64,000 nucleotides of DNA from Nannocystis bainbridge. GTDB taxonomy: Bacteria; Myxococcota_A; Polyangia; Nannocystales; Nannocystaceae. The notes under the pieces are model-generated. The model was not told where the DNA came from. It saw only the letters and a list, made by a program, of their open reading frames with translations, and did not search any database. Location: NCBI RefSeq assembly GCF_028368995.1, contig NZ_JAQNDL010000001.1, positions 2,176,001 to 2,240,000 on the forward strand, given 5' to 3'. Made by a program: the position numbers and the translations under genes. Positions 423 to 63,469 of this stretch are shown piece by piece (the first letter of the stretch is position 1; each line of letters opens with the position of its first letter).

Positions 423-643
423 TCGCCGTGCAACGCCCGTCGCCCGCTGAAGTTTCCCGCCCCTGCACTCCGCGGCGCCAGGTCGCGCCTGTCCTGCGGC
501 CCGCGAGCTCAAAAAACAATCGCCGGCCGTGTCGCACGCCCTGCCGAAGCCTGCTGCTCCTTCGGGCATGTCCTTTCTGCCATATTCCCAGTGCACCACG
601 AGCCGTCGGGCGTCCCCTCGCGCGGGCCCGACGCGCGATCACT

Positions 644-713
644 TGACCTTTCGGACATGTCTCATCAGCCATGTCCACAGGCCCCCGCGTCATGGAACCT
701 GTCCTCCGGGACA
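644..713. repeat. Phased array of the 14-bp TGTCC-N4-GGACA palindrome (5 units, two degenerate)
   Basis: TGACCTTTCGGACA 644, TGTCTCATCAGCCA 658, TGTCCACAG.. 672, degenerate unit 686, perfect TGTCCTCCGGGACA 700; two further units at 555-582. Confidence 0.75.
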
Positions 714-1290
714 TGCGCGCACAGGTCGCCGTGCGCGCCCATGCCGAACTCGTCGAGCACCCGCTCGCCGAGCAACCCGCACCGGCCGCGCGCATCCGCC
801 GGACGTGGCCCTGTCGTCGCGGTCGTCGTGGGCGCGGGCCCGCGGCGATCGTCCCGAGCCGCACCGTGTCGGCGAGCTCACCGGTGGTGAGCGGGGCGAA
901 CCGGGCGCGGCCTGCGGTCACGAGACGGCGACGACAGCTCGCGGCCCGCGCACCACCCCACGCGCACCCAGCCAGTCGACAACACCCGGCCACAGCCACT
1001 CGCCGCGACCGCAGGGACATCTGCCTGTGGAACCAGCTCCGCAGCCCGCACTCTCCGGCGCATCCTCCGCACCCACGGGCGGAAGCGCCCCGAGCCGCCC
1101 CCGCACCGGCTGCAGCCTCGCCCGGACCGCCCGCTCCGACCGCGGACCCGTCCCCCACGAGAACCGCGCGCCCCAGCGCCTCAGCCGCTCCGGGGCCGGT
1201 CTGGGTGCGCCCGCCTACCACAAGGGGTCGTGGTCGCCGAATCACCCCGCTTCCGTGACTTGGCCGCCGGGCCGCGGTAATTCTGGATCC

Positions 1291-2247
1291 GTGACCGACC
1301 GCTCCGTCGCCTGTCGCCGGCCCGCCGCTCTGGGCCTCGTGCTCGCCGCCGCCATCGCGGCGTGCAGCGGCGTCGACGATCCAGGCGAGCTCGGCGTGGC
1401 CCCGCAGGAGTCGGGCGAGCCGGCGGCCACCTCGCGGCTGGCCCAGATCCGCGTCGTCGTCCAGCCGCCCGGCGAGTTCGCGGGTGACGAGCCGGCGCTC
1501 GAGGTCTCGGCCGTGTTCGCCCAGTACCGCGGCTACGACGAGGCCGCCGCGCGCACCCGCCTCGACCTGCCGCGGCCCCCGGCCGAGCGCATGCGTCCCG
1601 GCCACTGTGCCCCGAGCGACCAGCTGCTGGCCGCCGACGAACCTGTCTCCAAGGACAGCAGCAGCAGCGCGCGCGAGCTGATCTTGCTCGACGCCGGCAA
1701 CCTCGGCGTCACCATCGGCGAGGCCGCGATCGACGTCCCGCTGGCGCTGCTGCCCGACCTGGTGCCCAACATCTCCGGCGTCACCTACACCTACCTGGGC
1801 GACAGCCTGCCTGCCGGTGCCTGGCCGCCGGGCGAGCCGGCCCCGTCCGAGTTGGTCGTCCGCGTCGACGGCGAGGGCGACGAGCTGCCCGGCTTCACCC
1901 TGCGCCCGCGCCTGCCCGAGCCGGCCGCGCTGACCGGCAGCATCGACCGCGGTCGCGACGAGCTGCGCCTCGAGTGGCGCCCCGGCGCCCGCGAGCCGCT
2001 GGTCCTGCGCCTCGCCAGCCTGATCGGCGGCGAGCCGGTCGGCGAGGAGCTGACCTGCGTGACCCATGACGACGGCTCGTTCGTCGCCGACCTCGACGAG
2101 CTGCACGCGCTCGGCCTCGACGCCGGCCCCGGCACCGCCCTGCGCATCGCGGCCACCCGCTCCGGCCGCACCGTGTTCGACGCCGGCGAGTTCGTCGGCG
2201 CCGAAGCCGTCGTCGAGGTCCGCACCGTCACCGTGCTCCCCCCCTGA
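1291..2247 (+). CDS. Secreted lipoprotein, hypothetical
   Basis: 3' part of ORF 529..2247; GTG start followed by ...LGLVLAAAIAAC-SG lipobox. Confidence 0.75.
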   Translation: MTDRSVACRRPAALGLVLAAAIAACSGVDDPGELGVAPQESGEPAATSRLAQIRVVVQPPGEFAGDEPALEVSAVFAQYRGYDEAAARTRLDLPRPPAERMRPGHCAPSDQLLAADEPVSKDSSSSARELILLDAGNLGVTIGEAAIDVPLALLPDLVPNISGVTYTYLGDSLPAGAWPPGEPAPSELVVRVDGEGDELPGFTLRPRLPEPAALTGSIDRGRDELRLEWRPGAREPLVLRLASLIGGEPVGEELTCVTHDDGSFVADLDELHALGLDAGPGTALRIAATRSGRTVFDAGEFVGAEAVVEVRTVTVLPP

Positions 2248-2278
2248 GCCGCCGGGTCGCTCGAGCGACAGAGGGACA

Positions 2279-2348
2279 TGTCCACCCGGACATGTCCCTT
2301 TCGACATTTCTCTCACGACATGTCGATGAAGACATGTCCGATCGGCCA
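2279..2348. repeat. Phased array of the 14-bp palindrome (5 units) between convergent genes
   Basis: TGTCCACCCGGACA|TGTCCCTTTCGACA|TTTCTCTCACGACA|TGTCGATGAAGACA|TGTCCGATCGGCCA. Confidence 0.9.
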
Positions 2349-2365
2349 TCTCCTGGCCCGCGAGC

Positions 2366-3871: not shown

Positions 3872-3950
3872 CGCCCGCAGGCTAGCGCACCCGCGCCCGC
3901 CCGAACAGCACCCCTCCGCCCGCCCGCCCGAGCTTCCGGGGCGCCAGTCC

Positions 3951-4265
3951 TCGCCTGTCCCTTCAGTCAGCTCCTCGCAATGCCCGCTCGCCCGCCCGCC
4001 CGCAGATCCGGCCGCGCTCGCGGACATGCTCGATCGGACATGCCCCGGCGCCGCTGCTCGCCTGTCCTTCAGTCAGCTCCTCGCAGCGCGGCCGAGCGCG
4101 GGAGACGATGCCCAGCCGCGCTCGCACACATGCCCGGCGCCGGTTCTCGCCTGTCCCTTCAGTCGGCTCCTCGCAGCACGGCCGAGCGCGGGAGACGATG
4201 CCCGGCCGCGCTCGCGGACATGCCCGGCGCCGCGCCTCGCCTCGCCCTTCAATCAGCTCCTCGCA
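3951..4265. repeat. Imperfect tandem repeat (4 copies, about 90-107 bp) upstream of murE, carrying degenerate 14-bp palindromes
   Basis: TCGCCTGTCCCTTCAGTCAGCTCCTCGCA-like core at about 3951, 4058, 4147 and 4237. Confidence 0.8.
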
Positions 4266-4329
4266 ATGCCCACGATTCACCCCTCAACGGCCGAACGCGG
4301 GTGGCGAAACCCGGCCGCGCTCAAGGACA

Positions 4330-4436
4330 TGCCCGATCGGACATGCCCCAAGGGGCATGCCATCATGAACATGTCCCCCGCGCCATCTCCCCACATTCGA
4401 TCTCGCTGATTTTTAAAGGACATGTCCCGGAGGACA
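4330..4436. repeat. Phased arrays of the 14-bp palindrome (4 units at 4330-4385; perfect unit at 4423-4436)
   Basis: TGCCCGATCGGACA|TGCCCCAAGGGGCA|TGCCATCATGAACA|TGTCCCCCGCGCCA ... TGTCCCGGAGGACA. Confidence 0.85.
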
Positions 4437-4448
4437 TGCCTTTAATCA

Positions 4449-6751: not shown

Positions 6752-7005
6752 CGTCCGGAGGTTTCCCGCCACCACCCCGTGATAGCGATTCCCGCCCCGC
6801 CTCGCAAAGCGCGCTCCGCGACCGACCCTCTCCGCTCGTGGACAGGCGAACGCAGTTCACTCGCGCAGACCGATCGATGCAACTGCAACCGAGGTCTCCC
6901 GGCCTCTTGACGGGCCGCGGCAGTGCCCGGGCCCGAAAGCCCCGGCCCGCCGCCCGGCGCCGGCCCGGGCCAGCCCTGCGCGGGGCGCACCGGGACTTCA
7001 GGACA

Positions 7006-7061
7006 TGTCCTTGCGGACACCTCGTCCGGGACATGTCCCGGAGGACATGTCCCGCGAGCCA
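7006..7061. repeat. Phased array of the 14-bp palindrome (4 units) just past the protease stop codon
   Basis: TGTCCTTGCGGACA|CCTCGTCCGGGACA|TGTCCCGGAGGACA|TGTCCCGCGAGCCA. Confidence 0.9.
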
Positions 7062-29094: not shown

Positions 29095-29161
29095 CCTCGA
29101 GGACATGCCCCCTGAGGCATGTCCTAGGAACCATGTCCTATTGAGCATGTCCCGTGAGACA
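29092..29161. repeat. Phased array of the 14-bp palindrome (5 units) starting on the desaturase stop codon
   Basis: TGACCTCGAGGACA|TGCCCCCTGAGGCA|TGTCCTAGGAACCA|TGTCCTATTGAGCA|TGTCCCGTGAGACA. Confidence 0.9.
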
Positions 29162-29367: not shown

Positions 29368-29409
29368 TGTCTCGAAGAACATGTCCTCACAGACATGCTC
29401 TCGCAGGCG
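29368..29409. repeat. Phased array (3 units) abutting the ftsI stop codon
   Basis: TGTCTCGAAGAACA|TGTCCTCACAGACA|TGCTCTCGCAGGCG. Confidence 0.8.
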
Positions 29410-31497
29410 TCACTTCTTCGGCGCGAACGCGACCTGCACGACCTTGCCGCTCTCGACCTGGCCGGGGGTCACGTCTTGCGACACGGCGATGCCGGAGCCC
29501 GAGGCGCGCAGCTCGACGTGGTTGCGGCCGGCGAGGTCGAGCGCCTGCGCCAGCGTGAGGCCGGTGAAGTCGGGCATGCCGGTGGTGACCTTGGGGTGGG
29601 CCGTGCCGCTGCCGCGCTCGTCGGAGCCGGGCAGTGACGGCTCGCCGTCGATCTCGGCGAGCACCCCGAGCGCGGCCTCCATCTGCTTGGCGGCCACCAC
29701 CACCGGCTTCGGCGGCGGCGGCGTCTTGCCGTCGTCGCGCGGCACCCCGAGGTGGGTCATGATCTGCCCGCCGAGGCGGGCGAAGCTGGGGGCCGCGACG
29801 TCGTTGCCGTAGTGGGCGCCCTCGGGCACGTCGACCGACACGAGGATCACCACCCGCGGCGCGCGGGCCGGCAGCGCGCCGATGAAGCTCGAGTAGTACA
29901 TGCCGTCGGCGTAGCCCTTGGTGCCGGCCTTCTGCGCCGTCGAGGTCTTGCCGGCCACCAGGTAACCGGCGACGTGGGCGTTGTTGCCGGTGCCGAGCTC
30001 GGTGTGGACGACGTCCTCGAGCATGCGCATCACGGACTTGGCGGTCGAGCTGCGGACCAGGCGCTCGCCCTCGGGCGCGTGCTCCCACACGCTGCCGCCG
30101 CGGGCGTCGAGGATCTTCTGGACGATGGTGGGGTCGTGATAGACGCCGTCGTTGGCCAGCGCGCCGAAGGCCGCGGTCACCTGCAGCGGCGACGCGGCCA
30201 TGCCCTGGCCGAACGCGATGTTGGCCATCTGGATGTCGGACCACTTCTCCGGCGGCGCCAACAGGCCCGCGGTCGCGCCCGGCAGCTGGACCCCGGGGCG
30301 CTCGCCGAAGTGGAACTTCTTGACCCACTTCGAGAGCGTCTGCTTGCCGAGGCGGTCGGCGATCTTGGTCGTGCAGATGTTCGACGACGCCGCCAGGATC
30401 TCCGTCACCGTCAGCCACTCGGCCGCGTGCGCGTCGTGGATCGTGTTGCGCGGGGTGTACTTCCAGCGGCCCTTCTCGCAGTAGAACGTCTCGTTCTCGC
30501 GCACCGCCCCGAGCTCGAGCGCGGCCGCCACGGTCACCGCCTTGAGCGTCGAGCCGGGCTCGTAGGCGGCCTGCACGGCCAGGTTCTGGGTCTGCTGGGC
30601 CTTCTCGACCGGGTGGTTGGGGTCGAAGGTCGGCCGGTTGGCCAGGGCGAGGATCTCGCCGTTGCGCGGGTCGAGCACCAGGATCGAGGTGCCGACCGGG
30701 TTCCACTGGCGGACGAGGGTGTTGATCTCCTCCTCGACCATCGCCTGGATCGCCGAGTCGATCGTCAGCACCACCGTGTCGCCGCGCGCGACCCCGGGGT
30801 CGGGCACGCCGTCGACCAGCAGCTTCTTGCCGGCCGCGAAGTAGGCCGGCGACAGCGCCTCGCGCCCGCGCAGCTGCATGTCGAGCCCGAGCTCGACGCC
30901 AGCGGTGCCGCTGCCCTGGGCGCCGACGCGGCCGAGCACGTGCGAGGCCAGGAGCCCGCGCGGGTACACGCGCGCGGTCGACGGCTCGAACGACACGCCG
31001 GGGATGCCCTTGGCCTGCAGCGCGGTCACCTGCGCGTCGGACAGGGGCAGGCGCAGCAAGCGATAGGCCTTGTCCTTGGCGATCTCCTCGCGCAGGTAAT
31101 CGGCGCTCTCGTCGGGCTCGAGCTCCAGCACCGCCTCGACGAGCGCCTCCTCGGCCCCGCGCGCGCGCACGAGGCGGGGGTTGATGGCGATCTTGTGTAC
31201 GCGGTCGTCGACCGCCAGCGTCATGAAGTCGCGGTCGACGATCTCGCCGCGGCTGGCCGCCAGCTTGAAGCTACGCAGCTGCTGGCGGTTGCCCTGCTCG
31301 GCGTAGGCCTCGTGCTCGACGGTGGCGAGCCGGGTCGCCTTGACCCCGGCGCCGACCAGCGCCGCGCAGATCGCCGCGCCGACCAGCGACGCGCGCCGCC
31401 CGACCGCCCGCATGTCGCTCGCCATCGGCGCGGGGATCAGGTTCTTGCGCATGGTGTTGCCGCGCTTTTCGGACATGTTCGATCCGCCCTGTCTCAT
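29410..31497 (-). CDS. ftsI: Cell-division penicillin-binding protein FtsI/PBP3 with C-terminal PASTA-like domain
   Basis: RGEIVDR, EPGSTLK (SxxK), SSN, KTS, MPDFTGLTL; lies downstream of rsmH-ftsL. Confidence 0.92.
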   Translation of the reverse strand: MRQGGSNMSEKRGNTMRKNLIPAPMASDMRAVGRRASLVGAAICAALVGAGVKATRLATVEHEAYAEQGNRQQLRSFKLAASRGEIVDRDFMTLAVDDRVHKIAINPRLVRARGAEEALVEAVLELEPDESADYLREEIAKDKAYRLLRLPLSDAQVTALQAKGIPGVSFEPSTARVYPRGLLASHVLGRVGAQGSGTAGVELGLDMQLRGREALSPAYFAAGKKLLVDGVPDPGVARGDTVVLTIDSAIQAMVEEEINTLVRQWNPVGTSILVLDPRNGEILALANRPTFDPNHPVEKAQQTQNLAVQAAYEPGSTLKAVTVAAALELGAVRENETFYCEKGRWKYTPRNTIHDAHAAEWLTVTEILAASSNICTTKIADRLGKQTLSKWVKKFHFGERPGVQLPGATAGLLAPPEKWSDIQMANIAFGQGMAASPLQVTAAFGALANDGVYHDPTIVQKILDARGGSVWEHAPEGERLVRSSTAKSVMRMLEDVVHTELGTGNNAHVAGYLVAGKTSTAQKAGTKGYADGMYYSSFIGALPARAPRVVILVSVDVPEGAHYGNDVAAPSFARLGGQIMTHLGVPRDDGKTPPPPKPVVVAAKQMEAALGVLAEIDGEPSLPGSDERGSGTAHPKVTTGMPDFTGLTLAQALDLAGRNHVELRASGSGIAVSQDVTPGQVESGKVVQVAFAPKK

Positions 31498-34541: not shown

Positions 34542-34617
34542 GGGACATGTCTGTTCGGGCATGGCCTCTGCGCCATGTCCGATCGGACATTTCCCCGCGG
34601 ACATGCCCCATCGAACA
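34534..34617. repeat. Phased array of the 14-bp palindrome (6 units) overlapping the ribA stop codon
   Basis: TGCTCTGAGGGACA|TGTCTGTTCGGGCA|TGGCCTCTGCGCCA|TGTCCGATCGGACA|TTTCCCCGCGGACA|TGCCCCATCGAACA. Confidence 0.9.
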
Positions 34618-37995: not shown

Positions 37996-38403
37996 ATGAA
38001 TTACTCGCGCGCCCACACCCTGTTCACCGACCTTCGTACGTTGATGTTCGCCCTCGTCCTCGCGCCGCTGGCGGCCGCGGGTTGCGGCGGCGGCGAGGGC
38101 AAGGACGACGCCGGCGACGGCCCCGAGATCGACTGCAGCACCGGGACGACGCCGAAGTTCTCGGAGATGACGGCCGTGTGGGGCAAGTGCACCACCTGTC
38201 ACGCCTCGACCCTGAGCGGGGCGAGCCGCGTGAACGCGCCCCCGGGCGTCGACTTCGACGTCTACGCCGCCGCCAAGACCCACGCCCAGACCGCCATGCA
38301 CGAGGTCTACGAGGGCGAGATGCCGCCCGCCGGCCTGCCCGCGCTGTCCACCGAGGAAGAGGATCAGCTGTTCCGCTGGGCCAGCTGCGGCACCCCCGAG
38401 TGA
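37996..38403 (+). CDS. Small monoheme c-type cytochrome lipoprotein
   Basis: AAGC lipobox; CTTCH heme motif; distal MPP. Confidence 0.75.
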   Translation: MNYSRAHTLFTDLRTLMFALVLAPLAAAGCGGGEGKDDAGDGPEIDCSTGTTPKFSEMTAVWGKCTTCHASTLSGASRVNAPPGVDFDVYAAAKTHAQTAMHEVYEGEMPPAGLPALSTEEEDQLFRWASCGTPE

Positions 38404-38405
38404 CG

Positions 38406-38503
38406 TGCCCGCAGGGACATGCCCCGAAGGGCATGTCCCTCTCGACATGTCATCGAGGACATGTCTATGAGGGCATGTCCTCGATGACATGTCCTCAGCG
38501 ACC
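38406..38503. repeat. Longest phased array of the 14-bp palindrome (7 units), filling a convergent intergenic gap
   Basis: TGCCCGCAGGGACA|TGCCCCGAAGGGCA|TGTCCCTCTCGACA|TGTCATCGAGGACA|TGTCTATGAGGGCA|TGTCCTCGATGACA|TGTCCTCAGCGACC. Confidence 0.95.
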
Positions 38504-40242: not shown

Positions 40243-41214
40243 TCAGGCCGCGCGACGGACCAGGTGGACCACCGCGAAGCGGGCCGCGTCGTCGGTCCAC
40301 GCCTGGGTCAGCGTCAGACCTGCGCTGGAGGACATGTCCGAAAAGCCATCCAGCGTATACTTGTGCGACAGCTCGGTCAGGATCGACTCGCGGGCGCGGA
40401 AGCTGAAGCTGCGGCCGCCGACCCCGACGACCTGGTCGATCTTGCTGACCAGGTGCATCTCGATGCGGCTGGCGGCCTCGTTGAACACGGCGCGGTGGGC
40501 GAAGCGGCCCGGCTGGAACTCACCGCCGAGCTCGCTGTTGATGCGGTGGAGCAGGTTGAGGTTGAACGCCGCGGTCACCAGGTCGCGGTCGTTGTAGGCG
40601 GCCTCGAGCACCGACTTCGACTTGACCAGGTCGATGCCGACCAGCGCGCCCTCGCAGCCGGGCGCGCGGGCGATGTTTCGCAGCAGCGCGGTCGCCTCGC
40701 TCGGGTCGAAGTTGCCGATCGTCGAGCCCGGGAAGTACACCAGGCTGCGGCCGAGCGCCCCGACCGGCAGGGCGAACGGGCGCGTGAAGTCGGCGTGCAG
40801 CGGCAGCACCTTGAGCTTCGGGTACTCGGCCTGGATCGCCGCGCTGGCGGCCAGCAGCGGCTTCTCCGACACGTCGACCGGCACGTACGCGGTCGCGTCG
40901 AGGTGGTCGAGCAGCAGCCGGGTCTTGATGCTCTCGCCGCTGCCGTACTCGACGATGATCCGGCGCGGGCCGACGGCGGCCGCCATCTCCATCGCGTGGT
41001 CGCCGAGGATCTCGATCTCCGCGCGGGTCAGGTAGTACTCCGGGGTCTCGCAGATCGCCTCGAACAGGTGCGAGCCGCGGGCGTCGTAGAAATACTTGGA
41101 GGGCAGGCGCTTGACCGGGCGCGACAGCCCCTCGATCACGTCGGCGAGGAACCCGTCGGCTGGCGCCTGCGTCGCCTCGTCATCGCGCGGGCGTTGGTGG
41201 AGCGGTCGCATCAT
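40243..41214 (-). CDS. egtD: L-histidine N-alpha-methyltransferase
   Basis: KRLPSKYFYDARGSHLFEAICETPEYYLTRAE, VEYGSG, FPGSTIGNF, AAFNLNLL, TELSHKY. Confidence 0.95.
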   Translation of the reverse strand: MMRPLHQRPRDDEATQAPADGFLADVIEGLSRPVKRLPSKYFYDARGSHLFEAICETPEYYLTRAEIEILGDHAMEMAAAVGPRRIIVEYGSGESIKTRLLLDHLDATAYVPVDVSEKPLLAASAAIQAEYPKLKVLPLHADFTRPFALPVGALGRSLVYFPGSTIGNFDPSEATALLRNIARAPGCEGALVGIDLVKSKSVLEAAYNDRDLVTAAFNLNLLHRINSELGGEFQPGRFAHRAVFNEAASRIEMHLVSKIDQVVGVGGRSFSFRARESILTELSHKYTLDGFSDMSSSAGLTLTQAWTDDAARFAVVHLVRRAA

Positions 41215-42449
41215 GCATCCTTGGTGAGACGGATCCCCGTGAACGGCCACCGCGCCCGGGGCGGAAAGAAATTGCGGTAGCTGGCACGCAAATGATCCCG
41301 CGGGGAAGCGCACGAACCGCCGCGCAGCACCATCTGGTTCGACATGAACTTGCCGTTGTATTCGCCGAGCGCGCCCGCCGGCGGGTGATAGCCGGGGTAC
41401 GGCAAGTACGCGCTCGCGGTCCACTCCCACACGTCGCCGAACAGCTGCGCCGGCCGGGGCTCGGCCTGCGGCGGCGCGTCCGCGACGGTCGGGTGGAGGC
41501 GGCCCGAATCGACGAAGTTACCGGCCACCGGCGCGCCCTCGGCCGCCGCTTCCCACTCGAACTCGGTCGGCAGGCGGGCGCCGGCCCAGCGGGCGAACGC
41601 GTCGGCCTCGTAGTGCGACACGTGGACCACCGGCGCGTGCGGGTCGAGCGGGCGCGGCCCGCCGAGCGTCATCTGCCACCATGTCCCCTGGGACATGTAC
41701 CAGTAGAGCGGCGCCGTCCAGCCCTCGGCCTGCGCCTGGGCCCAGCCGTCGGCCAGCCACAGCGTGCTGCGGCGGTAGCCGCCGTCGGCCACGAACTCCG
41801 CGTACTCCGCGTTGGTCACGCAGCGCGACGCCAGCGCGTGCGGCCGCAGCAGCGTCTGGTGGCGCGGGCCCTCGTTGTCGAAATGAAAGCCCGCGCCGGC
41901 GTTGCCCACCTCGCGCAACCCGCTCGGCCCCGGGCACCAGCGCAGCGGCGCCGCCGGTCGCGACGACGGCGGCGCCGCCTCCGCCCGCAGCCCCGGCCGC
42001 AGCGGGTTCTGGGCGTACAGGTGCAGCAGGTCCATCAGGATCAGCTCCTGGTGCTGCTGCTCGTGCTCGAGCCCGAGGCGGACCCGCTCGACCAGCCACG
42101 CCGGCCCGCCGCGGGCCAGCAGCTCGAGCATCGCCGCGTCGACGTGGGTCCGGTACTGCAGCACCTCGGCCCCGGTCGGCCGCGTCAGCAGCCCGCGGCG
42201 CGGCCGGCTGAACTGCGGGCCCACCGACTCGTAATACGAGTTGAAGAGGACCTCGAACTGCGGGTGAAACGGGCGGTAGCCGGGGTCGGCCGGGCCGAGC
42301 ACGAACGTCTCGAAGAACCACGTCGTGTGCGCCAGGTGCCACTTGGCCGGGCTCGCGTCCGGCATGCTCTGGACCGCGAGGTCCTCCGCGGGCAGCCCCG
42401 CGACCAGCCCCTCCGTGGCCGCGCGCACCCGGGCGTAGGCCGCCTCCAC
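41211..42449 (-). CDS. egtB: Ergothioneine sulfoxide synthase
   Basis: QSMPDASPAKWHLAHTTWFFE, HEQQHQEL, RLPTEFEWE, GEYNGKFM. Confidence 0.95.
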   Translation of the reverse strand: MEAAYARVRAATEGLVAGLPAEDLAVQSMPDASPAKWHLAHTTWFFETFVLGPADPGYRPFHPQFEVLFNSYYESVGPQFSRPRRGLLTRPTGAEVLQYRTHVDAAMLELLARGGPAWLVERVRLGLEHEQQHQELILMDLLHLYAQNPLRPGLRAEAAPPSSRPAAPLRWCPGPSGLREVGNAGAGFHFDNEGPRHQTLLRPHALASRCVTNAEYAEFVADGGYRRSTLWLADGWAQAQAEGWTAPLYWYMSQGTWWQMTLGGPRPLDPHAPVVHVSHYEADAFARWAGARLPTEFEWEAAAEGAPVAGNFVDSGRLHPTVADAPPQAEPRPAQLFGDVWEWTASAYLPYPGYHPPAGALGEYNGKFMSNQMVLRGGSCASPRDHLRASYRNFFPPRARWPFTGIRLTKDA

Positions 42450-43427
42450 TCAGAACCTCCCGCCGAGCGCGACCCCGAAGCCCTGGCCCGAAGGACCTGC
42501 CCCCAGGTGCAGCTGACCGCGGCGGGCCGTCTTGCCCACGCCGGTGTCCTGCCGCTCGAGCGTCTTCAGCTCGGCGCGCGACGACAGGGCGTCGACCGCC
42601 ATGAACGCCGAGCCGGCCAGCCCGAGCCCGCCCGCCAGGCTGGTGACGCCGACGAAGCGCAGCGGCTCCTTGTCGCCGTACTGACCGATCAGCCACAGCG
42701 CGCTGAACACCGCCGCCCCGGCGTAGAGGGCGTAGCCGAGCCCGCGGGCCCACAGCTTGCCGCGCACGCGCAGGTCCCGGCCGGTGCTGGCGCCGCCGAT
42801 GGCGACGATCGGCGTGCCGAGCAGCGTCGTCGTCAGGCCGAGGCTGGCGTACATGAAGTGCTTCATGCCGTAGTCGCTCGGGTCGGTCTTGCCGGCGCGA
42901 CCGGCGTCGTAGAGCACGCCCATCAGCATGCCGACCGCCGAGAAGCCGACGCCGACGCCGGCGCCGACGCGGGCCCACTCCGACGGCGTCGACTCGCGGC
43001 CCTCGACGCACTCCCACGAGTTCTCGTGCACCGCCGTCACCGCCCCCAGCGGAGCCTGCTGCGCGCCGTTCTTCGGGTGCACGTAGTAGACCGCCGACTT
43101 GTCGGCGCGGGTCAGCGTCACGCACTCGCGCCCCGCGGTGCCGAGGATCACCAGCACCCGCCGCCCGGCCAGCCGCTGCCACTGCGCGTCGCTCACCGGC
43201 GCGGGGTAATAGCGCGGCATGTTGTCCGCGGCGGCCGGCGCCTCCGCGGCGGTCGCGTCACCGGCGACCGCGTGGTGGATCAGCGTGACATGACCTTCGG
43301 GCAAGGTCCGATCGGACATGTCCGAAGCGCCATCCACGATCACCGCCTCGGGCCCCTCGTAGCTGCGCAGGCCGGCGGGCGGGGTGAGGGCGAGCGACAC
43401 GACGGCGAGCGCGGCGAGCATGGCCAC
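42450..43427 (-). CDS. Exported/membrane hypothetical protein
   Basis: Signal peptide, several hydrophobic helices, C-terminal GVALGGRF. Confidence 0.65.
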   Translation of the reverse strand: MAMLAALAVVSLALTPPAGLRSYEGPEAVIVDGASDMSDRTLPEGHVTLIHHAVAGDATAAEAPAAADNMPRYYPAPVSDAQWQRLAGRRVLVILGTAGRECVTLTRADKSAVYYVHPKNGAQQAPLGAVTAVHENSWECVEGRESTPSEWARVGAGVGVGFSAVGMLMGVLYDAGRAGKTDPSDYGMKHFMYASLGLTTTLLGTPIVAIGGASTGRDLRVRGKLWARGLGYALYAGAAVFSALWLIGQYGDKEPLRFVGVTSLAGGLGLAGSAFMAVDALSSRAELKTLERQDTGVGKTARRGQLHLGAGPSGQGFGVALGGRF

Positions 43428-44834: not shown

Positions 44835-45026
44835 GAGGAGACCGTTAGCACCCCGACGCGGCCGCGCGCCACTCTTCGGCAGGGCCCGCCGCGGCGGCTG
44901 CGCAGCGGGTCGGCGGTGCAGCGCGGACACGGGGTGCCCGGGGGCCCGGGGACCGCGACGGGGCGAGCGTCCCCCGGTCGTTCGGCGCGGTCGCGGCGGG
45001 CGCCGACCGGCGTTTGTCCCATCACA

Positions 45027-45054
45027 TGTCTTACGGGACATGTCCGATCGGACC
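45027..45054. repeat. Two in-phase 14-bp palindromes in the murF/HNH divergent region
   Basis: TGTCTTACGGGACA|TGTCCGATCGGACC. Confidence 0.8.
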
Positions 45055-45214
45055 TGTGATTGCGCGGCCCGGCGTTCGGCGGCCCCGCGCGCGGGCCCGG
45101 CTCGCGTTCGCCCGCGCCGATGCTCGCGCGTCGGCGCGCGCCTGCGTCGCAGCCGTCACGCGGGCGTGGCCGCGTCGACGCCGGGTCATGCTAGCCTCGT
45201 GGATGGGGAGCCTC

Positions 45215-45730: not shown

Positions 45731-45948
45731 TGTCCCGAGGGACAGGTCGCACCGGCCGGGCCCGGCGAACGCGGCGGCCGTCTCGGCGCAGGCCCGCCGC
45801 GCCTGCGCGCGGACCATTCACCGCATCCTGTCCCGAAGGCCAGGTCGCCGGCCGGGCCCGGCGAACGCGGTGCCCTCTCGGCGCAGGCCCGCCGCGCCCG
45901 CGTGCGCCGGGGCCATCCTCCACATCCTGTCCCGAAGGCCAGGTCGCT
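45731..45948. repeat. Tandem repeat of about 98 bp (2 copies plus a partial third), each starting with the 14-bp palindrome
   Basis: TGTCCCGAGGGACA 45731; TGTCCCGAAGGCCA 45829 and 45928. Confidence 0.85.
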
Positions 45949-47439: not shown

Positions 47440-47481
47440 TGGTCGAAACGACATGTCCAAAAGCACATGTACAAAAAATCA
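47440..47481. repeat. Phased array (3 units) with A-tract spacers
   Basis: TGGTCGAAACGACA|TGTCCAAAAGCACA|TGTACAAAAAATCA. Confidence 0.75.
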
Positions 47482-52833: not shown

Positions 52834-54600
52834 GTGAACCCCGGCGAGACCTCCGAGTGGCAGGACCACGCCCGCCTGGCCGGCCGGCGCCGGCTGGCGC
52901 AGGCGATCGGCGAGCTCAGCTTCGAGGGGCTGCTGCACCCGCGTCCGCTCGGCGACGACCGCTGGGCGCTCGATCTGTCCGATGGGACATGTTATTCGTT
53001 CACAGGGCGGCCGAGCGCGTGGGGCGGGCTGCACGTCGAGGCCGACGGCATCACCCGCCGCGAAGGCGACGGCGACGAGCAACCGGCCGCCTCGCCGGTG
53101 CAGCTGATCCTCGACGCCCGGGCCGCGCTCGGGGTCGGCGCCGACGCGCTGGCCGAGTTCCTCGAGGAGCTCCACAACAGCCTGCTGGCCGAGACGGAGC
53201 AGTGCGCGCGCCTGGCCGAGCTGCGCGCGCCGCAGCTGGCCGCGCTGTCGGGCGCCGCGCTCGAGCAGCACCTCGACGGCCACCCCAAGCTGGTGGCGCA
53301 CCGCGGCCGCGTCGGCTGGGGCGTCGCCGATCTCGCAGCCTACGCGCCCGAGTCCGCCAGCCGCGTGCAGCTGCACTGGCTCGTCGTCGCGCCCGAGCTG
53401 GCCCGCTGCAGCGGCGCCGCCGGTCCGGGCCAGCTGCAGTTGGTCGACGAGAGCTGCGACGCCGAGGCCCGGGCCCGCCTGCTCGAGCAGCTGCACGCGC
53501 GCGCCCCCGGGCTCGCGCGCGGCGGCGTGCTGGTGCCGGTGCACCCGTGGCAATGGCAGCACCACCTGGCCGCCCAGTATATCGACGCGCTGACGCGCGG
53601 CGCGATCGTCTCGCTCGGCCGCTTCGGCGACGCCTACGCGCCGCGCCTCTCGATCCGCACCCTCGCCGACGCTTCGCGACCCGAGCGCGCCGACGTCAAG
53701 CTGGCGCTGACGATCCTCAACACCTCGTGCTGGCGCGGCCTGCCCGGCGAGCACATCGAGCAGGGCGTCGGCATCGGCGCGGCGCTGCGGCGGCGCGTCG
53801 CCGGCGATCCTCTGCTGCACGGCGTGCACGTGCTCGCCGACCTCGGCGGCGTGCACGTGCCGCAGCCCGAGTTCGAGGCCCTCGGCGCCGCGCCCTACCG
53901 CCTGCGCGAGCAGCTGGGGGCGCTGTGGCGCGAGAGCGCGACGGCTCGCCTCGGCGCCGACGAGCGCGAGGTCGCGGCCGCGGCGCTGCAGCAGACCGAC
54001 CTCCGCGGCGAGCCGCTGCTGCGCACATGGGTCGAGCAGAGCGGCGCCTCGATCACGGCGTGGTTGACCGCGCTGTTCGAGCGCACCGCGGCGCCGCTCT
54101 ATCACTTGCTGTGCCGCCACGGCATCGGCGTGATCGCCCACGGGCAGAACCTCGGGCTGGTGCTGCGCGCGGGAATGCCGACGGCGATCCTGCTGCGCGA
54201 CGTGCACGGCGACGTGCGCCGGGTGGCCGACGACCGCTTCGATCACGAGCCGGCGCTGCGCGGGCTCAAGGCGCTGCCGGCCGGCCAGATCGTGCACGAC
54301 CTCTACACCGGCTATTTCGTCAGCGTGCTGCGGTTCGTCGCGCCGCTGTGCGAGCGCAGCTTCGGCCTGCCGGAGCGCGAGTTCCTGCGGCTGCTGTCCG
54401 CGGTGCTCGCCGCCTACTGTGATTCGGTGCCGCACGAGGCGACGGCGCGCTTCGATCTGTTCCGTCCGGAGATGGAGCGGATCTGCCTCAACCGCGCCCG
54501 TCTGCGGATCGGCCACGGCGGCGGCGCCACGCGCCCGCTGCCCGCGCTCGGTCCGCCGCTGCATAACCCGTTGGTGAGGGAGGTGGACGATGAACGATGA
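52834..54600 (+). CDS. iucC: IucA/IucC-family NIS synthetase (IucC-like)
   Basis: GHPKLVAHRGRVGW, VHPWQW, SIRT, LNTS, HGQN. Confidence 0.9.
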   Translation: MNPGETSEWQDHARLAGRRRLAQAIGELSFEGLLHPRPLGDDRWALDLSDGTCYSFTGRPSAWGGLHVEADGITRREGDGDEQPAASPVQLILDARAALGVGADALAEFLEELHNSLLAETEQCARLAELRAPQLAALSGAALEQHLDGHPKLVAHRGRVGWGVADLAAYAPESASRVQLHWLVVAPELARCSGAAGPGQLQLVDESCDAEARARLLEQLHARAPGLARGGVLVPVHPWQWQHHLAAQYIDALTRGAIVSLGRFGDAYAPRLSIRTLADASRPERADVKLALTILNTSCWRGLPGEHIEQGVGIGAALRRRVAGDPLLHGVHVLADLGGVHVPQPEFEALGAAPYRLREQLGALWRESATARLGADEREVAAAALQQTDLRGEPLLRTWVEQSGASITAWLTALFERTAAPLYHLLCRHGIGVIAHGQNLGLVLRAGMPTAILLRDVHGDVRRVADDRFDHEPALRGLKALPAGQIVHDLYTGYFVSVLRFVAPLCERSFGLPEREFLRLLSAVLAAYCDSVPHEATARFDLFRPEMERICLNRARLRIGHGGGATRPLPALGPPLHNPLVREVDDER

Positions 54601-60724: not shown

Positions 60725-61582
60725 ATGCGGCTCGACAGCGTGCGCGGCAACACCCAGAGGCTCGACGGCGGCGCGATGTTCGGCAACGTCCCGCGGCCCC
60801 TGTGGCAGCGCTGGGCCCCGCCTGACGACCTCAACCGGATCTCCCTGGCCTGTCGCTGCCTGCTCGTCCGCGACGACCGCGGCCGCACGATCCTCTTCGA
60901 GGCCGGCATCGGCGCCTTCTTCGAGCCCAAGCTGCGCGAGCGCTTCGGCGTCGTCGAGTCGGAGCACGTCCTCCTCGACTCGCTGGCCGCCCTCGGCGTC
61001 GGGCCCGACGACATCGACATCGTCGTGCTCTCGCACCTCCACTTCGATCACGCCGGCGGCCTGCTCACCACCTGGTCCGAAGGACAGGCGCCGGCCCTGG
61101 TATTCCCGCGCGCCAGCTACGTCGTCGGCGAGGACGCCTGGCAGCGCGCGCTGCACCCCCACCCGCGCGACCGGGCCTCGTTCATCCCCGGCCTCACCGA
61201 CTTGCTCCTCGCCACGGGTCGGCTCGAGCGCGTGAGCGGCGACCGCAGCGAGCTGCTCGGGCCCGGCTACACCTTCACGGTCTCCAACGGTCACACACCG
61301 GGGCTGCTGCTCGCACGCATCGAGACACCGCGGGGCGCCGTCACCTTCATGGGCGATCTCGTGCCCGGCGTCCCGTGGGTCCACCTGCCGATCACCATGG
61401 GCTACGACCGCTTCCCGGAGCTCCTCATCGACGAGAAGGAGGCCCTGCTGGCCCGGATCCTCGCCGACGACGGCACCGTCTTTTACACCCACGATCCAGA
61501 TGTCGCGGCCAGCAAGCTGACCCGCGACGCCCATGGCAAGTTCACCGCGACATCCATGGTCAGCGAGCTCCACTGGGCCTGA
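60725..61582 (+). CDS. MBL-fold metallo-hydrolase (YtnP-like)
   Basis: [30 protein letters not shown]. Confidence 0.92.
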
Positions 61583-61704
61583 CACCGCTGTCACATTCGC
61601 GGTGGCAGAGGTCGGTATTTTAAGTTCGCGCCATCGTCGAGGGCGGGCGCGTCGCCCGGACACATGCCCGAGACGGCCGGCGAACCGACCGCCGCGGGGT
61701 TTCA

Positions 61705-61821
61705 TTAAGTCAGCGCAAGCAGCTTCTTCTGCAGCCTGCGGACCGAGCGCGGCGCCGTCATCAGGTAGTACACGCCGGTCAGCACGTAGAGGGGCAGCTT
61801 GGAAGCATTGGGGGGGGTCAT
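61705..61821 (-). CDS. Putative 38-aa small membrane-associated protein
   Basis: GGAG RBS; MTPPNASKLPLYVLTGVYYLMTAPRSVRRLQKKLLALT; mostly GC3 codons. Confidence 0.4.
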   Translation of the reverse strand: MTPPNASKLPLYVLTGVYYLMTAPRSVRRLQKKLLALT

Positions 61822-62056
61822 GGCACGTTCTCCGCGATAAGGTCTGCGTCTTTGTAGCGGCGGGGGGCCGCGTGTCGGATCACTCGATGTCCGACACCGT
61901 TTCGATCTCGCACATCTCGGTGCTCTCTTGCAGATCACGCACCGAGATGGCGATCCGACCTCTGCGAAACGCATCGCATTCCTGTGAGATTCCGTCGCGA
62001 CAATTTGTCCGCCCGCGGTGACGGACGGCGCCGCTGGCGGCCAATTTATCTGGCTG

Positions 62057-63469
62057 TCAGGACATGCTCGGAGAGACAGGTACTCGCGGGCGCCCGGGGA
62101 ACATCGCTTCGACCTCGCGCGCGACCGCCAGCACCCGATCCTCGCGGCCGAGCGGGCCGACCAGCTGGACCGCGATCGGCAGGCCCTCGCGGGAGCTCGC
62201 CACCGGCAGCGCCACCGCCGGCTGACCGGTGACGTTGAACGGCGCCGTGAACGCCCCGTAGACCGCGTAGGCGCGGAACACCGCCTCGCCGTCGGGTCCG
62301 CGCCACGCCCCGATCGGCGGCGGAGGTCCCACCACTGCGGGCGTCAGCACCAACTCGGCGTCACCGACCCACGCCAGCACCCGCTCGCGCAGCGCCTCGA
62401 ACGCCGCGTGGGCCAGCGCCGGCGAGTTGCGGCGACCGGCCTCGACGAGCCAGCGCGTCGCCGGCTGCAGCCGGTCCGCCCGCACCCACGGCACCTCGGA
62501 CAGGAGGCGCTGGTAGATCGGCAAGAAATCGTCGACCGACCCCCGCGCCATCTCGACCTCCTCGACGCGGTGGCCCGCGCCGGCGAGCGCCTCGCCGACG
62601 GACCGCGTCGCCGCGGCCCACTCTGGCGCGGCGGCGGCCAGCGGCGAGTCGACCGCCAGCTTGATCCGCAGGCGCGGCGACGGCTCCAGCATCTGTCCGT
62701 AAGGACATGGCGGAGGGGACAGCCAGTGCGGCCGCCCGACGGTGAGCCCGGCCATCACGTCGAGCAGCGCCGTCGCGTCGGCGACCGAGCGCGCCAGCGG
62801 CCCGCAGGTGTAGAGCAGCGTGCGGTCGTCGCGACCGAACGCGTTGGCGACCCGCCCGCGCGACGGCTTGAGGCCGACGAGGCCGCAGAACGCGGAGGGG
62901 ATCCGGATCGAGCCGGCGCCGTCGCTGCCCTGGGCCCACGGCAGCAGGCCAGCGGCGACCGCCGCGCCCGAGCCCCCGCTCGAGCCGCCGGCCGTGCGCG
63001 CCGGGTCCCACGGGTTGCGCGTCGGCGGGTGCGTGTCAGGCTCCGTCACCGGCAGCGCCCCGAGCTCCGACGTCGCCAGCTTGCCGAGCACCACGAGGCC
63101 CGCCGCGCGCAGCTTGGCCACCGTCGCGTCGTCGATCGGCGAGTACAGCGGCAGCACCCCGCGCGAGCCCATGCGGGTCCGCGAGCCGCGGACGAAATTG
63201 AGGTCCTTGACGCCGATCGGCACCCCGAGCAGGGGCGGGACCGAGTCGAGCGCGCCGCGCCGCGCCGCGCGGTCGAGCGCATCGTCGGCGGCCCGGGCCG
63301 CTCGCCGCGCCCGCGCGTCGAACACCGACACGAAGGCCGACAGCGCGGGGTTGTGCGCGGCGATACGGTCCAGGTACAGCGCGACGAGCTCCTGGCTGCG
63401 GATCTCGCGGCGCCGCAACAGGCGCGCCTGTTCCAGGCCAGACACGTGGAGGAGCTCGGCGAGCGACAT
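62057..63469 (-). CDS. Amidase-signature family amidase
   Basis: GVPIGVKD, TRNPW, GGSSGGSG, GSDGAGSIRIP, GLKPSRG. Confidence 0.95.
   Translation of the reverse strand: MSLAELLHVSGLEQARLLRRREIRSQELVALYLDRIAAHNPALSAFVSVFDARARRAARAADDALDRAARRGALDSVPPLLGVPIGVKDLNFVRGSRTRMGSRGVLPLYSPIDDATVAKLRAAGLVVLGKLATSELGALPVTEPDTHPPTRNPWDPARTAGGSSGGSGAAVAAGLLPWAQGSDGAGSIRIPSAFCGLVGLKPSRGRVANAFGRDDRTLLYTCGPLARSVADATALLDVMAGLTVGRPHWLSPPPCPYGQMLEPSPRLRIKLAVDSPLAAAAPEWAAATRSVGEALAGAGHRVEEVEMARGSVDDFLPIYQRLLSEVPWVRADRLQPATRWLVEAGRRNSPALAHAAFEALRERVLAWVGDAELVLTPAVVGPPPPIGAWRGPDGEAVFRAYAVYGAFTAPFNVTGQPAVALPVASSREGLPIAVQLVGPLGREDRVLAVAREVEAMFPGRPRVPVSPSMS

Follow-up and report, generated by a model that had tools for sequence, protein, structure and literature searches.

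The window analysed here comprises 64,000 nt of Nannocystis bainbridge (NZ_JAQNDL010000001.1, 2,176,001 to 2,240,000, forward strand). Arrays and lone copies of a short palindrome are located past, between and in places within its genes, among them murE-, murF-, ftsI- and ftsL-like genes and ribA (Table 1). Gene boundaries were obtained from our own GC3-based caller, in which the stops are exact given the reading frame and the starts are approximate.

Table 1. Palindromic elements of the window and their gene context (signs in brackets give the strand of the neighbouring gene).
Element	Position	Context
Lone core GGGCATGTCC (1 mismatch)	564..573	Intergenic
A1, 5 units in 14-bp register, one broken (681)	653..718	5'/divergent region
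A2, 6 units, perfect double core 2274-2297	2274..2357	Convergent spacer of 118 bp, mostly occupied by A2; stops at 2247 (+) and 2366 (murE-like, -)
A3, two cores	4022..4045	Heads 90-bp tandem repeat 4038-4265
Extra core	4216-4225	In the 90-bp tandem repeat region of A3
A4, 5 units	4325..4390	58 nt past stop of gene 4449-5402 (-)
A4b, two-core hairpin	4418..4441	7 nt past stop at 4449 (-); stem lengthened by AAAGG/CCTTT flanks; orthologous element in locus L018
A5, 4 units, perfect double core 7029-7052	7001..7052	13 nt past stop of trypsin-like protease gene (7066-8418, -)
A6, 4 units	29101..29152	6 nt past fatty-acid desaturase stop (28165-29094, +); one end of a convergent spacer
A6b, two units	29377..29400	9 nt past ftsI-like PBP stop (29410-31476, -); opposite end of the same spacer as A6
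A7, 5 units	31471..31536	ftsL/ftsI junction; overlaps final ~20 codons of FtsL-like ORF (31494-31931, -) and ftsI start
A8, 5 units	34543..34608	Begins 1 nt past ribA stop (33909-34541, +)
A9, 7 units, longest; carries a 28-bp duplication	38401..38494	Starts at stop codon of 37996-38403 (+), ends 16 nt short of stop of SMR gene (38511-38849, -)
Lone perfect core	40330..40339	Within egtD-like coding sequence
Two units, perfect inner 14-mer 41682-41695	41677..41700	Within egtB-like coding sequence
A12, 3 units	43286..43323	~105-145 nt past murF-like stop (43431, -); within uncertain 5' end of predicted ORF 42450-43427 (-)
A13, 3 units, the core at 45036 perfect	45022..45059	Divergent region, murF-like/HNH genes
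Perfect inner TGTCC-N4-GGACA	45731..45744	3 nt past HNH gene stop; heads 99-bp tandem repeat (45731-45947)
A14, two cores, AAAA spacers	47449..47472	Divergent region
Perfect inner 14-mer, outer halves degenerate	52976..52989	Within IucA/IucC-like coding sequence
Perfect inner 14-mer, outer halves degenerate	62694..62707	Within amidase coding sequence

An earlier note on this DNA had reported ten perfect copies of TGTCCNNNNGGACA (TGTCC-N4-GGACA), and every one was present at its reported position. Dinucleotide shuffles of the window gave an expectation of 0.03 copies, and ten were reached in 0 of 100 shuffles, while the core GGACATGTCC with at most one mismatch occurred 30 times (1.72 expected). 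The enrichment also held when Markov models of order 3 and order 5, fitted to the window's own sequence, served as background; they predicted 0.02 and 0.13 copies of the 14-mer, respectively, and ~0.8 CATG pairs at a distance of 14 bp. The CATG autocorrelation showed 26 such pairs, the peak that the note had anticipated, followed by further peaks at 28 bp (19 pairs), 42 bp (12) and 56 bp (6), with 0-1 pairs at most of the neighbouring distances. The analysis was extended to 649 kb of Nannocystaceae DNA, consisting of the window and 75 Nannocystis/Nannocystaceae loci, some of which are mutually orthologous, so that the counts are not fully independent. Here, cores with at most two mismatches were spaced by 14 bp in 199 cases, and by 13 and 15 bp in one case each. 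The phase remained strict even across decayed units (54 at 28 bp, 41 at 42 bp). The motif thus departs massively from randomness and keeps a strict phase.

A better description of the unit than TGTCC-N4-GGACA is the 10-bp palindrome GGACATGTCC followed by four free bases. An in-phase neighbour was present for 297 of 387 good cores, compared with a background of 0.5% per site, and 40 of 90 seemingly lone cores kept a facing half-site with at most one mismatch. A position weight matrix revealed two-fold symmetry within each arm, with CATG as the best conserved part; core conservation peaks beside the spacer and declines outwards. The spacers are AT-enriched and practically devoid of information (0.1-0.3 bit). 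Adjacent spacers were identical in 7 of 129 cases (~1.2 expected), and spacers i and i+2 in 5 of 56 (~0.5 expected). The 14-bp arrays described previously were found in the proposed register; they are not gap-free, several of them containing broken units such as those at 681 (7 mismatches), 7015 (3) and 43300 (3), and the arrays at 29368-29409, 43277-43332 and 47440-47481 hold just 2-3 recognisable units each. Across the 649 kb, 173 of 246 arrays consist of only two cores, equivalent to one 24-nt hairpin, and longer arrays form the minority, so that the long cooperative arrays proposed earlier are exceptional.

The 77 perfect double cores were distributed over convergent (42), tandem (23) and divergent (2) contexts, called coding sequences (6) and locus edges (4), leaving 73 classifiable by gene context. 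Convergent intergenic spacers represent 2.3% of the DNA, yet they hold 42 of these 73, and the per-kb excess of perfect copies over divergent spacers is 34-fold (42 in 15.2 kb vs 2 in 29.9 kb). In same-strand contexts, 18 of 23 perfect elements lie within 70 nt past the upstream stop. The median distances in tandem contexts were 38 nt to the upstream stop and 240 nt to the next start. The motif density within coding DNA is 0.05-0.1 per kb, 20-30 times below the intergenic value. Non-seed elements reached 2.1 per kb in convergent spacers, 0.7 in both tandem and divergent spacers and 0.096 in coding DNA. As the elements are spread at roughly one per 4 kb, with positions set by gene structure, the previously suggested centromere, nucleoid-occlusion or macrodomain mark finds no support.

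Two observations on placement run against a gene-end reading, namely the equal density of non-seed elements in divergent and tandem spacers and the location of A7 within an operon junction.

When 185,579 species genomes were scanned, 78 loci were recovered, of which 75 belong to Nannocystis or Nannocystaceae. Without seed sites, the 14-mer density in five cultured species was 9.6-14.7 per 64 kb, the window containing 10. The contrast between conserved arms and drifting 4-bp centres, already described within the window, holds also between orthologous sites of different species: in orthologous non-seed arrays, identity was 130/140 for cores, 20/28 for spacers and 118/168 for flanks, and cores therefore evolve more slowly than spacers. 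The A5 double core, for example, is shared with three further species of Nannocystis and is thus intact in four, with the spacers CGGA, GAAC, GCGA and GCGA. Turnover was seen as well: in 11 of 29 orthologous comparisons there were indels or an alignable partner was missing, and species differ in the number of units. The element had no match in Rfam, and no description of the motif was found in the literature.

Covariation was measured on 111 two-core elements with 6-nt flanks. Flank covariation was 0.167 against 0.106±0.007 and 170 cells had changed on both sides against 112±9; neither value was reached in 500 shuffles, and both exceeded every slid control. The flank pair adjoining the core was paired in 67 of 111 elements through six pair types, and a separate count of this pair gave 55 Watson-Crick pairs (32.3 expected). 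Adjacent cores showed 87 compensatory double changes against 50±6.3 (maximum of 71 in 1000 shuffles); such changes were not in excess inside a single core (58 vs 71) or for core pairs i/i+2 (28 vs 25.5). In a smaller set, 70 core pairs oriented by the sense strand, covariation was only modest (0.187 vs 0.155, reached by 9 of 500 shuffles). Folded as RNA, the arrays were 3.8-10 sd better than shuffles, A9 reaching -69.6 kcal/mol (z = -10). Such Watson-Crick covariation of flanks and adjacent cores is predicted by a hairpin and not by the row of dimers on duplex DNA that the earlier note had envisaged. Complementary flanks could also arise without selection, through palindrome-perfecting template switching.

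None of the comparisons made distinguishes action as RNA from action as DNA. On the sense strand, G·U exceeded A·C by 72 to 33 (42 to 23 with each variant counted once), compared with 58 to 81 in the convergent control, each variant again counted once. The G·U excess tracks local GC skew (139 vs 80) and is gone where the sense-strand skew is negative (30 vs 31). Stable RNA tetraloops were not clearly enriched in the elements.

The elements are not canonical intrinsic terminators, because they lack a U-tract (T accounts for 18% of the 16 downstream nt, in runs of at most 3) and because their short T-rich flank is mirrored on the upstream side (41 T downstream vs 43 A upstream, of 144 positions).

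These results are best read as a new REP-like hairpin element that is specific to its lineage and placed at gene ends, its occurrence so far being almost confined to the soil myxobacterium genus Nannocystis and to Nannocystaceae. We assign a probability of about one half to the proposal that it is a repetitive extragenic palindrome working like a REP element at gene ends in this group. The elementary unit would be a hairpin of ~24-30 nt, in which two self-complementary GGACATGTCC 10-mers enclose a free 4-nt loop and the stem is often lengthened by 1-3 variable base pairs. Tandem duplication by 14 or 28 bp could turn a single hairpin into an in-phase array, after which the 4-nt spacers would drift. 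Given their location directly past stop codons, chiefly between convergent genes, the elements may act at the ends of transcription units; a symmetric hairpin would form in transcripts of either strand and might serve as a 3'-end barrier or a termination-assisting structure, as enterobacterial REP/BIME elements do. Since thousands of sites, also in different species, preserve the exact stem, beyond the needs of a simple hairpin, a lineage-specific factor probably reads the sequence, putatively a protein that binds this symmetric stem or the corresponding duplex, or an enzyme propagating the element. The sequence-specific reader of the earlier note remains a reasonable inference.

The same conservation beyond pairing ability would be explained by a duplex-DNA platform, which transfers the idea of the earlier note to gene ends. 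Here a homodimer would occupy each 10-bp palindrome or TGTCC-N4-GGACA, aligned every 14 bp, and would either form a roadblock or insulator that works in both directions where genes converge, or provide an entry point for gyrase or another nucleoid protein where positive supercoils accumulate. REP/BIME elements themselves bind gyrase and IHF. Two-fold symmetric arms with CATG best conserved are as expected for a dimer site, and the strict phase across decayed units, the symmetry of element and flanks even in one-directional contexts, the lack of a U-tract or RNA-specific signature and the convergent-gene enrichment, which would fit a topological or roadblock function too, are consistent with it. 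However, pure duplex binding leaves the base-pair covariation unexplained, the dominance of two-core elements and the facing half-sites fit a spacer-centred hairpin, conservation is maximal next to the spacer and declines outwards, and no candidate protein was identified. We consider this platform unlikely.

The hairpin covariation would also fit recognition as folded single-stranded DNA, as expected of a selfish, non-autonomous REPIN- or MITE-like element with no host function, copied by a Nannocystis-specific enzyme such as a RAYT/IS200-type single-strand transposase and building up past stop codons because insertions are least harmful there. Restriction to one lineage, one sharp consensus common to all copies, strong avoidance of coding regions, turnover with differing unit numbers, and tandem duplications together with longer tandem repeats carrying motif copies at their boundaries all agree with this. 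Nevertheless, a scan of 48 window proteins detected no transposase domain, Y1 or other, and the 537 predicted proteins of the window and loci included no recurrent transposase-like family; the large families, with 10 representatives annotated, were kinases, two-component proteins, STAS, ECF sigma factors and SDRs. The motif carries neither a GTAG nor a CGTC tag, many old sites have perfect cores with diverged spacers, and the 34-fold convergent/divergent excess is greater than simple insertion tolerance would give, unless insertion is targeted. A purely selfish origin is judged quite improbable.

A DNA-uptake signal comparable to Neisseria DUS or Haemophilus USS, which are over-represented short words often found as inverted pairs in terminators (a link of uptake sequences with terminators that Kingsford et al. 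reportedly drew in 2007), would account for a 10-mer hugely over-represented in one lineage with inverted pairs past genes, but is very improbable given the near-exclusion of the motif from coding DNA and its strict 14-bp phasing in tandem arrays, for which we know of no DUS/USS counterpart, and no finding here relates to competence in Nannocystis.

Among known systems, the uptake sequences resemble the element as lineage-specific, over-represented 10-12-mers that often form hairpin stems past genes; they occur frequently in coding DNA too and are not known to be phased in tandem, whereas the Nannocystis motif is depleted in coding DNA. Intrinsic (Rho-independent) terminators are similarly GC-rich hairpins right past stops, often shared by a convergent pair; the Nannocystis element differs in having no U-tract and one common stem sequence in place of site-specific stems. 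Hairpin clusters have been proposed as terminators in the available part of one account (PMC8355165).

REP/BIME elements of Enterobacteriaceae, Pseudomonas and Stenotrophomonas are also comparable. As far as the available excerpts describe them (PMC3733652, PMC2817692), they are short, imperfect, stem-loop-capable palindromes of 20-40 nt, high-copy, extragenic and lineage-specific, located mostly past genes or between convergent genes, singly or in regular clusters, with proposed roles in mRNA 3'-end protection, termination and supercoiling, and the Nannocystis element shares the short, extragenic, high-copy, lineage-specific stem-loop form, the placement past and between convergent genes and the occurrence as single copies or regular clusters. 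In contrast, each Nannocystis arm is itself a perfect palindrome, giving an element without orientation; clusters run head-to-tail with an exact 14-bp period instead of in alternating orientations with variable linkers; the GTAG or CGTC terminal tag is absent; and the window and loci yielded no RAYT gene. Untagged REP-like stem-loops of M. tuberculosis, D. radiodurans, Bordetella, Brucella and cyanobacteria are likewise abundant palindromic repeats without a RAYT-type tag or a known mobilising enzyme. In the available excerpts, phased 14-bp arrays are not described for these families, the account of them contains 0 matches to Myxococc, Sorangium, Haliangium, Anaeromyxobacter or Stigmatella, and the RepRanger survey mentions no myxobacterial family.

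Finally, FNR/CRP-type 5-4-5 operators, parS and matS share the two-fold symmetric 14-bp TGTCC-N4-GGACA geometry. FNR/CRP-type operators are promoter sites, whereas divergent promoter regions hold just 2 of the 73 perfect elements with a classifiable context; the number of Nannocystis sites is orders of magnitude above a regulon, and the covariation within the element indicates intrastrand pairing.

An earlier note on this DNA described TGTCC-N4-GGACA as the mark of a candidate chromosome-organising or protein-binding system, and the perfect 14-mer (TGTCCNNNNGGACA) was found in ten copies at exactly the coordinates it gave, against 0.03 expected from dinucleotide-preserving shuffles. When the frame is shifted by half a unit, a conserved 10-bp palindrome emerges, GGACATGTCC, referred to as the core, which is followed by four free bases (the spacer) to give the 14-bp period. 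At no more than one mismatch, 30 cores were observed in the window and 1.72 were expected. The autocorrelation of CATG peaked at 14 bp, as the note had predicted, with 26 pairs at 14 bp, 19 at 28, 12 at 42 and 6 at 56, and 0-1 pairs at most distances neighbouring these multiples. The motif was also enriched over Markov backgrounds of order 3 and order 5, which gave just 0.02 and 0.13 expected 14-mers and ~0.8 expected CATG pairs at 14 bp in the window, with the models trained on the window itself and the motif words therefore already included. All of the arrays said to be gap-free could be printed in the 14-bp register; broken units lie inside some of them, and several consist of just two or three recognisable units.

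A scan of 185,579 species, each represented by a single genome, for pairs of perfect cores at a distance of 14 bp, hereafter perfect double cores, gave at least 78 loci. Among the loci listed, 75 were derived from N. exedens, N. pusilla, N. punicea, N. radixulma, Nannocystis sp. RBIL2 and five MAGs labelled Nannocystis, Nannocystaceae or 'Myxococcales'. The other three, from a gammaproteobacterial MAG, Diplocloster and a Terriglobales MAG, each held one isolated double core with no further good cores nearby; these loci (L010, L015 and L065) were treated as chance or unrelated hairpins and omitted from every count. No locus was identical to the window, and three were orthologous to window 2343-13018 at 85-91% identity. 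When the seed sites, through which the loci had been found, were excluded, the 75 loci (585 kb) contained 85 further perfect 14-mers. Scaled to 64 kb, the five cultured species have 9.6-14.7 copies and the MAGs 0-7.7, compared with 10 in the window. These densities show that the repeat is a genus-wide feature. The window holds about 17 arrays in 64 kb, i.e. one per ~4 kb.

Chromosome-organising sites such as parS, centromeres and macrodomain marks are few, clustered in the ori or ter domain, and bound by ParB/MatP-type proteins. The motif was present at similar density in the window and in 75 scattered loci from ten genomes, which speaks against confinement to a single domain. The centromere, nucleoid-occlusion or macrodomain function put forward earlier found no support in the placement of the elements.

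The anatomy of the element was derived from the window and the 75 loci, 649 kb in total. Cores with up to two mismatches were spaced by 14 bp in 199 cases, and by 13 bp and 15 bp in one case each. The consensus was nnnGGACATGTCCnnnnGGACATGTCCnnn with variable flanks; the half-arms adjoining the spacer were the most conserved, conservation dropped outwards, and the spacer positions were AT-enriched at 0.1-0.3 bit. Among the 246 arrays with at least two units, 173 had two cores, 34 had three, 26 four, 10 five, two six and one seven. The usual form is therefore core-N4-core, a 24-bp palindrome, and the long arrays of the window are the tail of the array-size distribution. An in-phase neighbour was present for 297 of 387 cores (at most one mismatch) against a background of 0.5% per site, and 40 of the 90 'lone' cores faced a half-site (at most one mismatch) across a 4-nt spacer. 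Identical spacers were observed in 7 of 129 neighbouring pairs (~1.2 expected) and in 5 of 56 pairs two units apart (~0.5 expected), which shows that arrays grow by tandem duplication of 14 and 28 bp. A 28-bp duplication is contained in A9, one of the long arrays.

The intergenic DNA of the window is unusually rich in minisatellites. Three long-period tandem repeats carry a motif copy or half-copy at their head, as do tandem repeats with periods of 57-125 bp in the scanned loci (L016 5989-6361, L017 6158-6272 and L037/L068, the last with the variant core GGACCTGTCC); these look as if they arose by duplication between motif copies. The positions of the window features are listed in the table.

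The window has a GC content of 72%, and its products include MurE-, MurF-, MraY-, MurD-, FtsI-, FtsL- and RsmH-like proteins, RibA, EgtB/EgtD-like enzymes and an IucA/IucC siderophore cluster. Its dcw genes (cell wall and division) are dispersed with unrelated genes between them rather than forming one cluster. A stand-alone HNH endonuclease gene encodes a generic HNH domain, similar to the HNH of IscB/Cas9 at the domain level only; a 3-unit array precedes the gene by 143 nt and a perfect TGTCC-N4-GGACA follows its stop at 3 nt, which at one array per ~4 kb may be coincidence. The region of reduced GC may be acquired DNA.

Features of the window, with positions, strands and observations
Feature	Position	Strand	Observation
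murE-like gene	2366-3871 (2.4-3.9 kb)		
Intergenic tandem repeat	4038-4265		90 bp; motif copy or half-copy at head
ORF, 890 aa	20850-23522	-	No family match; contains the next feature
Repetitive coding stretch	20877-21267		Highly repetitive; periods 12-102 bp; CTTCGCCCCCGACTTC-like on plus strand
Region of reduced GC	23500-26500		GC 0.66-0.68 vs about 0.72; no motif copies
ORF	23832-25013	-	No Pfam or NCBIfam match
ORF	25442-26368	+	No Pfam or NCBIfam match
rsmH-ftsL-ftsI	29410-32899 (29-33 kb)	-	
Last ~20 codons of FtsL-like ORF	31494-31556	-	Cross array A7
Intergenic tandem repeat	35131-35320		53 bp x3.7; no obvious motif copy
Intergenic tandem repeat	37497-37727		64 bp; motif copy or half-copy at head
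SMR-family gene	38511-38849	-	
Guanidine-III riboswitch	38866-38929	-	Directly upstream of SMR-family gene; 64.2 bits vs gathering score 36
murF-like gene	43431-44834 (43.4-44.8 kb)		
HNH endonuclease gene	45203-45727	+	174 aa (HNH_5)
Intergenic tandem repeat	45731-45947		99 bp; motif copy or half-copy at head
Intergenic tandem repeat	48756-49011		76 bp x3.4; no obvious motif copy
Intergenic tandem repeat	57715-57867		72 bp x2.1; no obvious motif copy
mraY and murD	58030-60712 (58-60.7 kb)	+	

Genes were called by our own third-position-GC method, which fixes a stop exactly once the frame is given but places starts approximately; its output agreed with the Pfam matches and assigned 82% of the DNA to coding sequence. 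As the 77 perfect double cores were ascertained by sequence alone, their context is unbiased. Convergent spacers, which make up 15.2 kb or 2.3% of the DNA, held 42 of them, and same-strand spacers held 23, of which 18, all of them remote from the following start, were at most 70 nt from the upstream stop. Two were found in divergent spacers (29.9 kb), six in called coding sequences and four at locus edges. Non-seed arrays followed with densities per kb of 2.1 in convergent, 0.7 in tandem, 0.7 in divergent and 0.096 in coding DNA, and in same-strand contexts the upstream stop lay at a median distance of 38 nt, the next start at one of 240 nt.

Within the window, arrays A2, A4b, A5, A6, A6b, A8 and A9 start -3 to 26 nt from a stop codon, and the element is present at about 10 gene ends, for a total of roughly 48 genes. 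A9 is also located 3' of the SMR gene, whose upstream side carries the Guanidine-III riboswitch; such a riboswitch with a guanidinium exporter is an expected pairing. Exceptions to the placement at gene ends are A1, A13 and A14 in divergent regions, a few copies within coding sequences, and A7, which runs across the end of the FtsL reading frame and the beginning of ftsI. FtsL models matched the FtsL-like ORF over residues 49-125 only, and the C-terminal tail of this protein may have been extended or replaced by the array.

The orthologous sites allow the cores to be compared with their surroundings. At the A5 site, 3' of a protease gene, two perfect cores were kept in four species with the spacers CGGA, GAAC, GCGA and GCGA, whereas the intergenic DNA around them could barely be aligned; core identity is forced here, as three of the four species were ascertained through that very site. 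In seven pairs of non-seed orthologous arrays, taken from 13 locus pairs, identity was 130/140 in cores, 20/28 in spacers and 118/168 in flanks, and the seed pairs gave 23/44 in spacers and 166/264 in flanks. In 11 of the 29 comparisons an indel was present in the partner or no array could be aligned there, and Nannocystis sp. RBIL2 has counterparts of A2, A3, A4b and A5, each differing in the number of units. These alignments therefore show that the cores are held far tighter than their surroundings, and that arrays expand, shrink and occasionally vanish.

Hairpin formation was assessed at the non-conserved positions flanking the cores of 111 distinct two-core elements. The bases just outside the left and right core were Watson-Crick complementary in 55 elements (32.3 expected), the second flank pair in 44 (30.5) and the third in 34 (26.5), with no excess further out; slid controls gave 31 and 36. 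A pair-counting test of the same 111 elements with 6-nt flanks (500 shuffles and slid controls) returned a covariation of 0.167 vs 0.106±0.007, 170 vs 112±9 cells changed on both sides, and 74.7% vs 70.7±0.6 paired cells. None of the 500 shuffles was as high in any of the three measures, and each exceeded every slid control. The core-adjoining pair was formed in 67 of 111 elements by six pair types. Compensatory double changes between adjacent cores numbered 87 vs 50±6.3, above the maximum of 71 in 1000 shuffles, with no excess within a single core (58 vs 71) or between cores i and i+2 (28 vs 25.5). For 70 non-perfect core pairs in sense orientation, a smaller set, the covariation was only modest (0.187 vs 0.155) and was reached by 9 of 500 shuffles.

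Folded as RNA, the arrays were 3.8-10 sd better than shuffles (A9, -69.6 kcal/mol), and the 24-30-nt element has a predicted stem of 10-13 bp. The perfect 23-bp stem of A9 had prompted a model of long nested hairpins with mirror-complementary spacers, which was not general, as at least three matches occurred in 7 of 56 comparisons vs 4.2 expected. Taken together, the covariation of flanks and cores and the folding show that intrastrand pairing shapes the element sequences. The pairing could be due to selection for the hairpin or to palindrome-perfecting template switching, and either origin would require a hairpin to form in the cell. A platform for a dimer bound to the duplex, acting as a roadblock or topological site, would accommodate the strict phase and the constant cores, leaves the paired flanks unaccounted for, and is regarded as possible at rather long odds.

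An excess of G·U over A·C was considered as a sign of selection on RNA, and the sense-strand count of 72 vs 33 was dropped as a GC-skew artefact. With each variant counted once, the result was 42 vs 23, against 58 vs 81 in the convergent control, and the excess was absent where the sense-strand skew was negative (30 vs 31). Among core transition variants in the intergenic arrays of the window and the 75 loci, oriented to positive GC skew, A>G/C>T numbered 139 and T>C/G>A 80. As variants track the local GC skew, a strand-compositional bias is visible even within 10-bp palindromes and can mimic an RNA G·U signature. Stable tetraloops were weakly raised and not clearly enriched (GNRA 17 vs 10.8 expected; UNCG 8 vs 4.9).

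Intrinsic terminators carry a U-tract of 7-9 nt after the hairpin on the transcribed strand. The Nannocystis element resembles them as a GC-rich hairpin directly 3' of a gene, but no U-tract was found in the 16 nt downstream (T 18%, longest run 3). T-rich positions +1 to +3 were mirrored by upstream A even in one-directional contexts (41 vs 43 of 144). The elements are therefore not canonical intrinsic terminators and are symmetric in every setting.

The evidence best supports an extragenic palindrome of REP-like type that is lineage-specific and placed at gene ends. We give a probability of about one half to the reading in which its hairpin works at the ends of transcripts, in both directions, as a 3'-end barrier or an aid to termination. 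A hairpin role alone would permit compensatory drift of the stem, yet the cores are 93% identical and the spacers and flanks ~70%, which points to a sequence-reading factor or to some form of copying by which the repeats stay uniform. As the stem sequence is kept beyond the needs of pairing, it is probably read by some factor. A purely selfish hairpin element could draw on such copying and on the duplications within arrays; set beside the concentration at gene ends, this explanation seems unlikely. More speculatively, and with doubtful prospects, a Nannocystis-specific homodimer might read the GGACATGTCC helix, as duplex DNA or hairpin stem, and stack in the 14-bp register as a bidirectional end-of-gene insulator that halts converging RNA polymerases. 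This would be sequence-specific, factor-dependent termination with a genome-wide punctuation mark, of which we know no example in bacteria.

If the hairpin does act at transcript ends, a considerable fraction of the transcription-unit ends in Nannocystis would be marked by a single, exactly conserved hairpin sequence. It would be a landmark for annotating operon ends in 11-13 Mb genomes of 72% GC, where terminators are otherwise hard to see, and a portable candidate terminator or insulator for use when natural-product clusters of myxobacteria are engineered. It would also pose the question of what reads the sequence.

Among known systems, a CRISPR array has repeats of at least 23 nt and unique spacers of at least 26 nt; here a 10-bp repeat alternates with a 4-bp spacer. 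Rfam at gathering thresholds gave no family for the repeat in the window, the sole match being the riboswitch elsewhere. DNA uptake signals (DUS/USS) are over-represented lineage-specific 10-12-mers found genome-wide, coding DNA included, and are preferentially taken up by a competence receptor; the Nannocystis motif is over-represented yet almost excluded from coding DNA, which makes an uptake signal highly improbable.

The closest likeness is to REPs and BIMEs. The element shares with them a 20-40-nt imperfect palindrome with a stable stem-loop, here backed by covariation, and a high-copy, extragenic distribution. In BIMEs, REP clusters alternate in orientation with set linkers, whereas the Nannocystis units are orientation-free palindromes placed head-to-tail. 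REPs are associated with a RAYT (Y1 transposase) gene that they flank. Pfam identified none among the 48 window proteins, and an all-against-all BLASTP of the 537 predicted proteins of the window and loci revealed no transposase-like recurrent family; a gene family travelling with the repeat was also sought, and only the usual large myxobacterial paralogue families were obtained. Two REP super-families are distinguished, with a conserved GTAG or CGTC tetranucleotide at one end (PMC3733652); the Nannocystis consensus carries neither tag. Full-text literature searches on myxobacterial intergenic palindromes, terminators, Nannocystis repeats, the core sequence and REP/RAYT yielded no description of the repeat, and no myxobacterial terms were found in the text of two REP surveys, whose supplementary tables might list such genomes. 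The element thus has REP-like structure and distribution, but without the tag and without the alternating BIME layout. REP-like repeats that lack a known transposase are a poorly understood class, and to these it adds a family of unusual geometry, in which each arm is a palindrome in itself and the 14-bp phase is strict.
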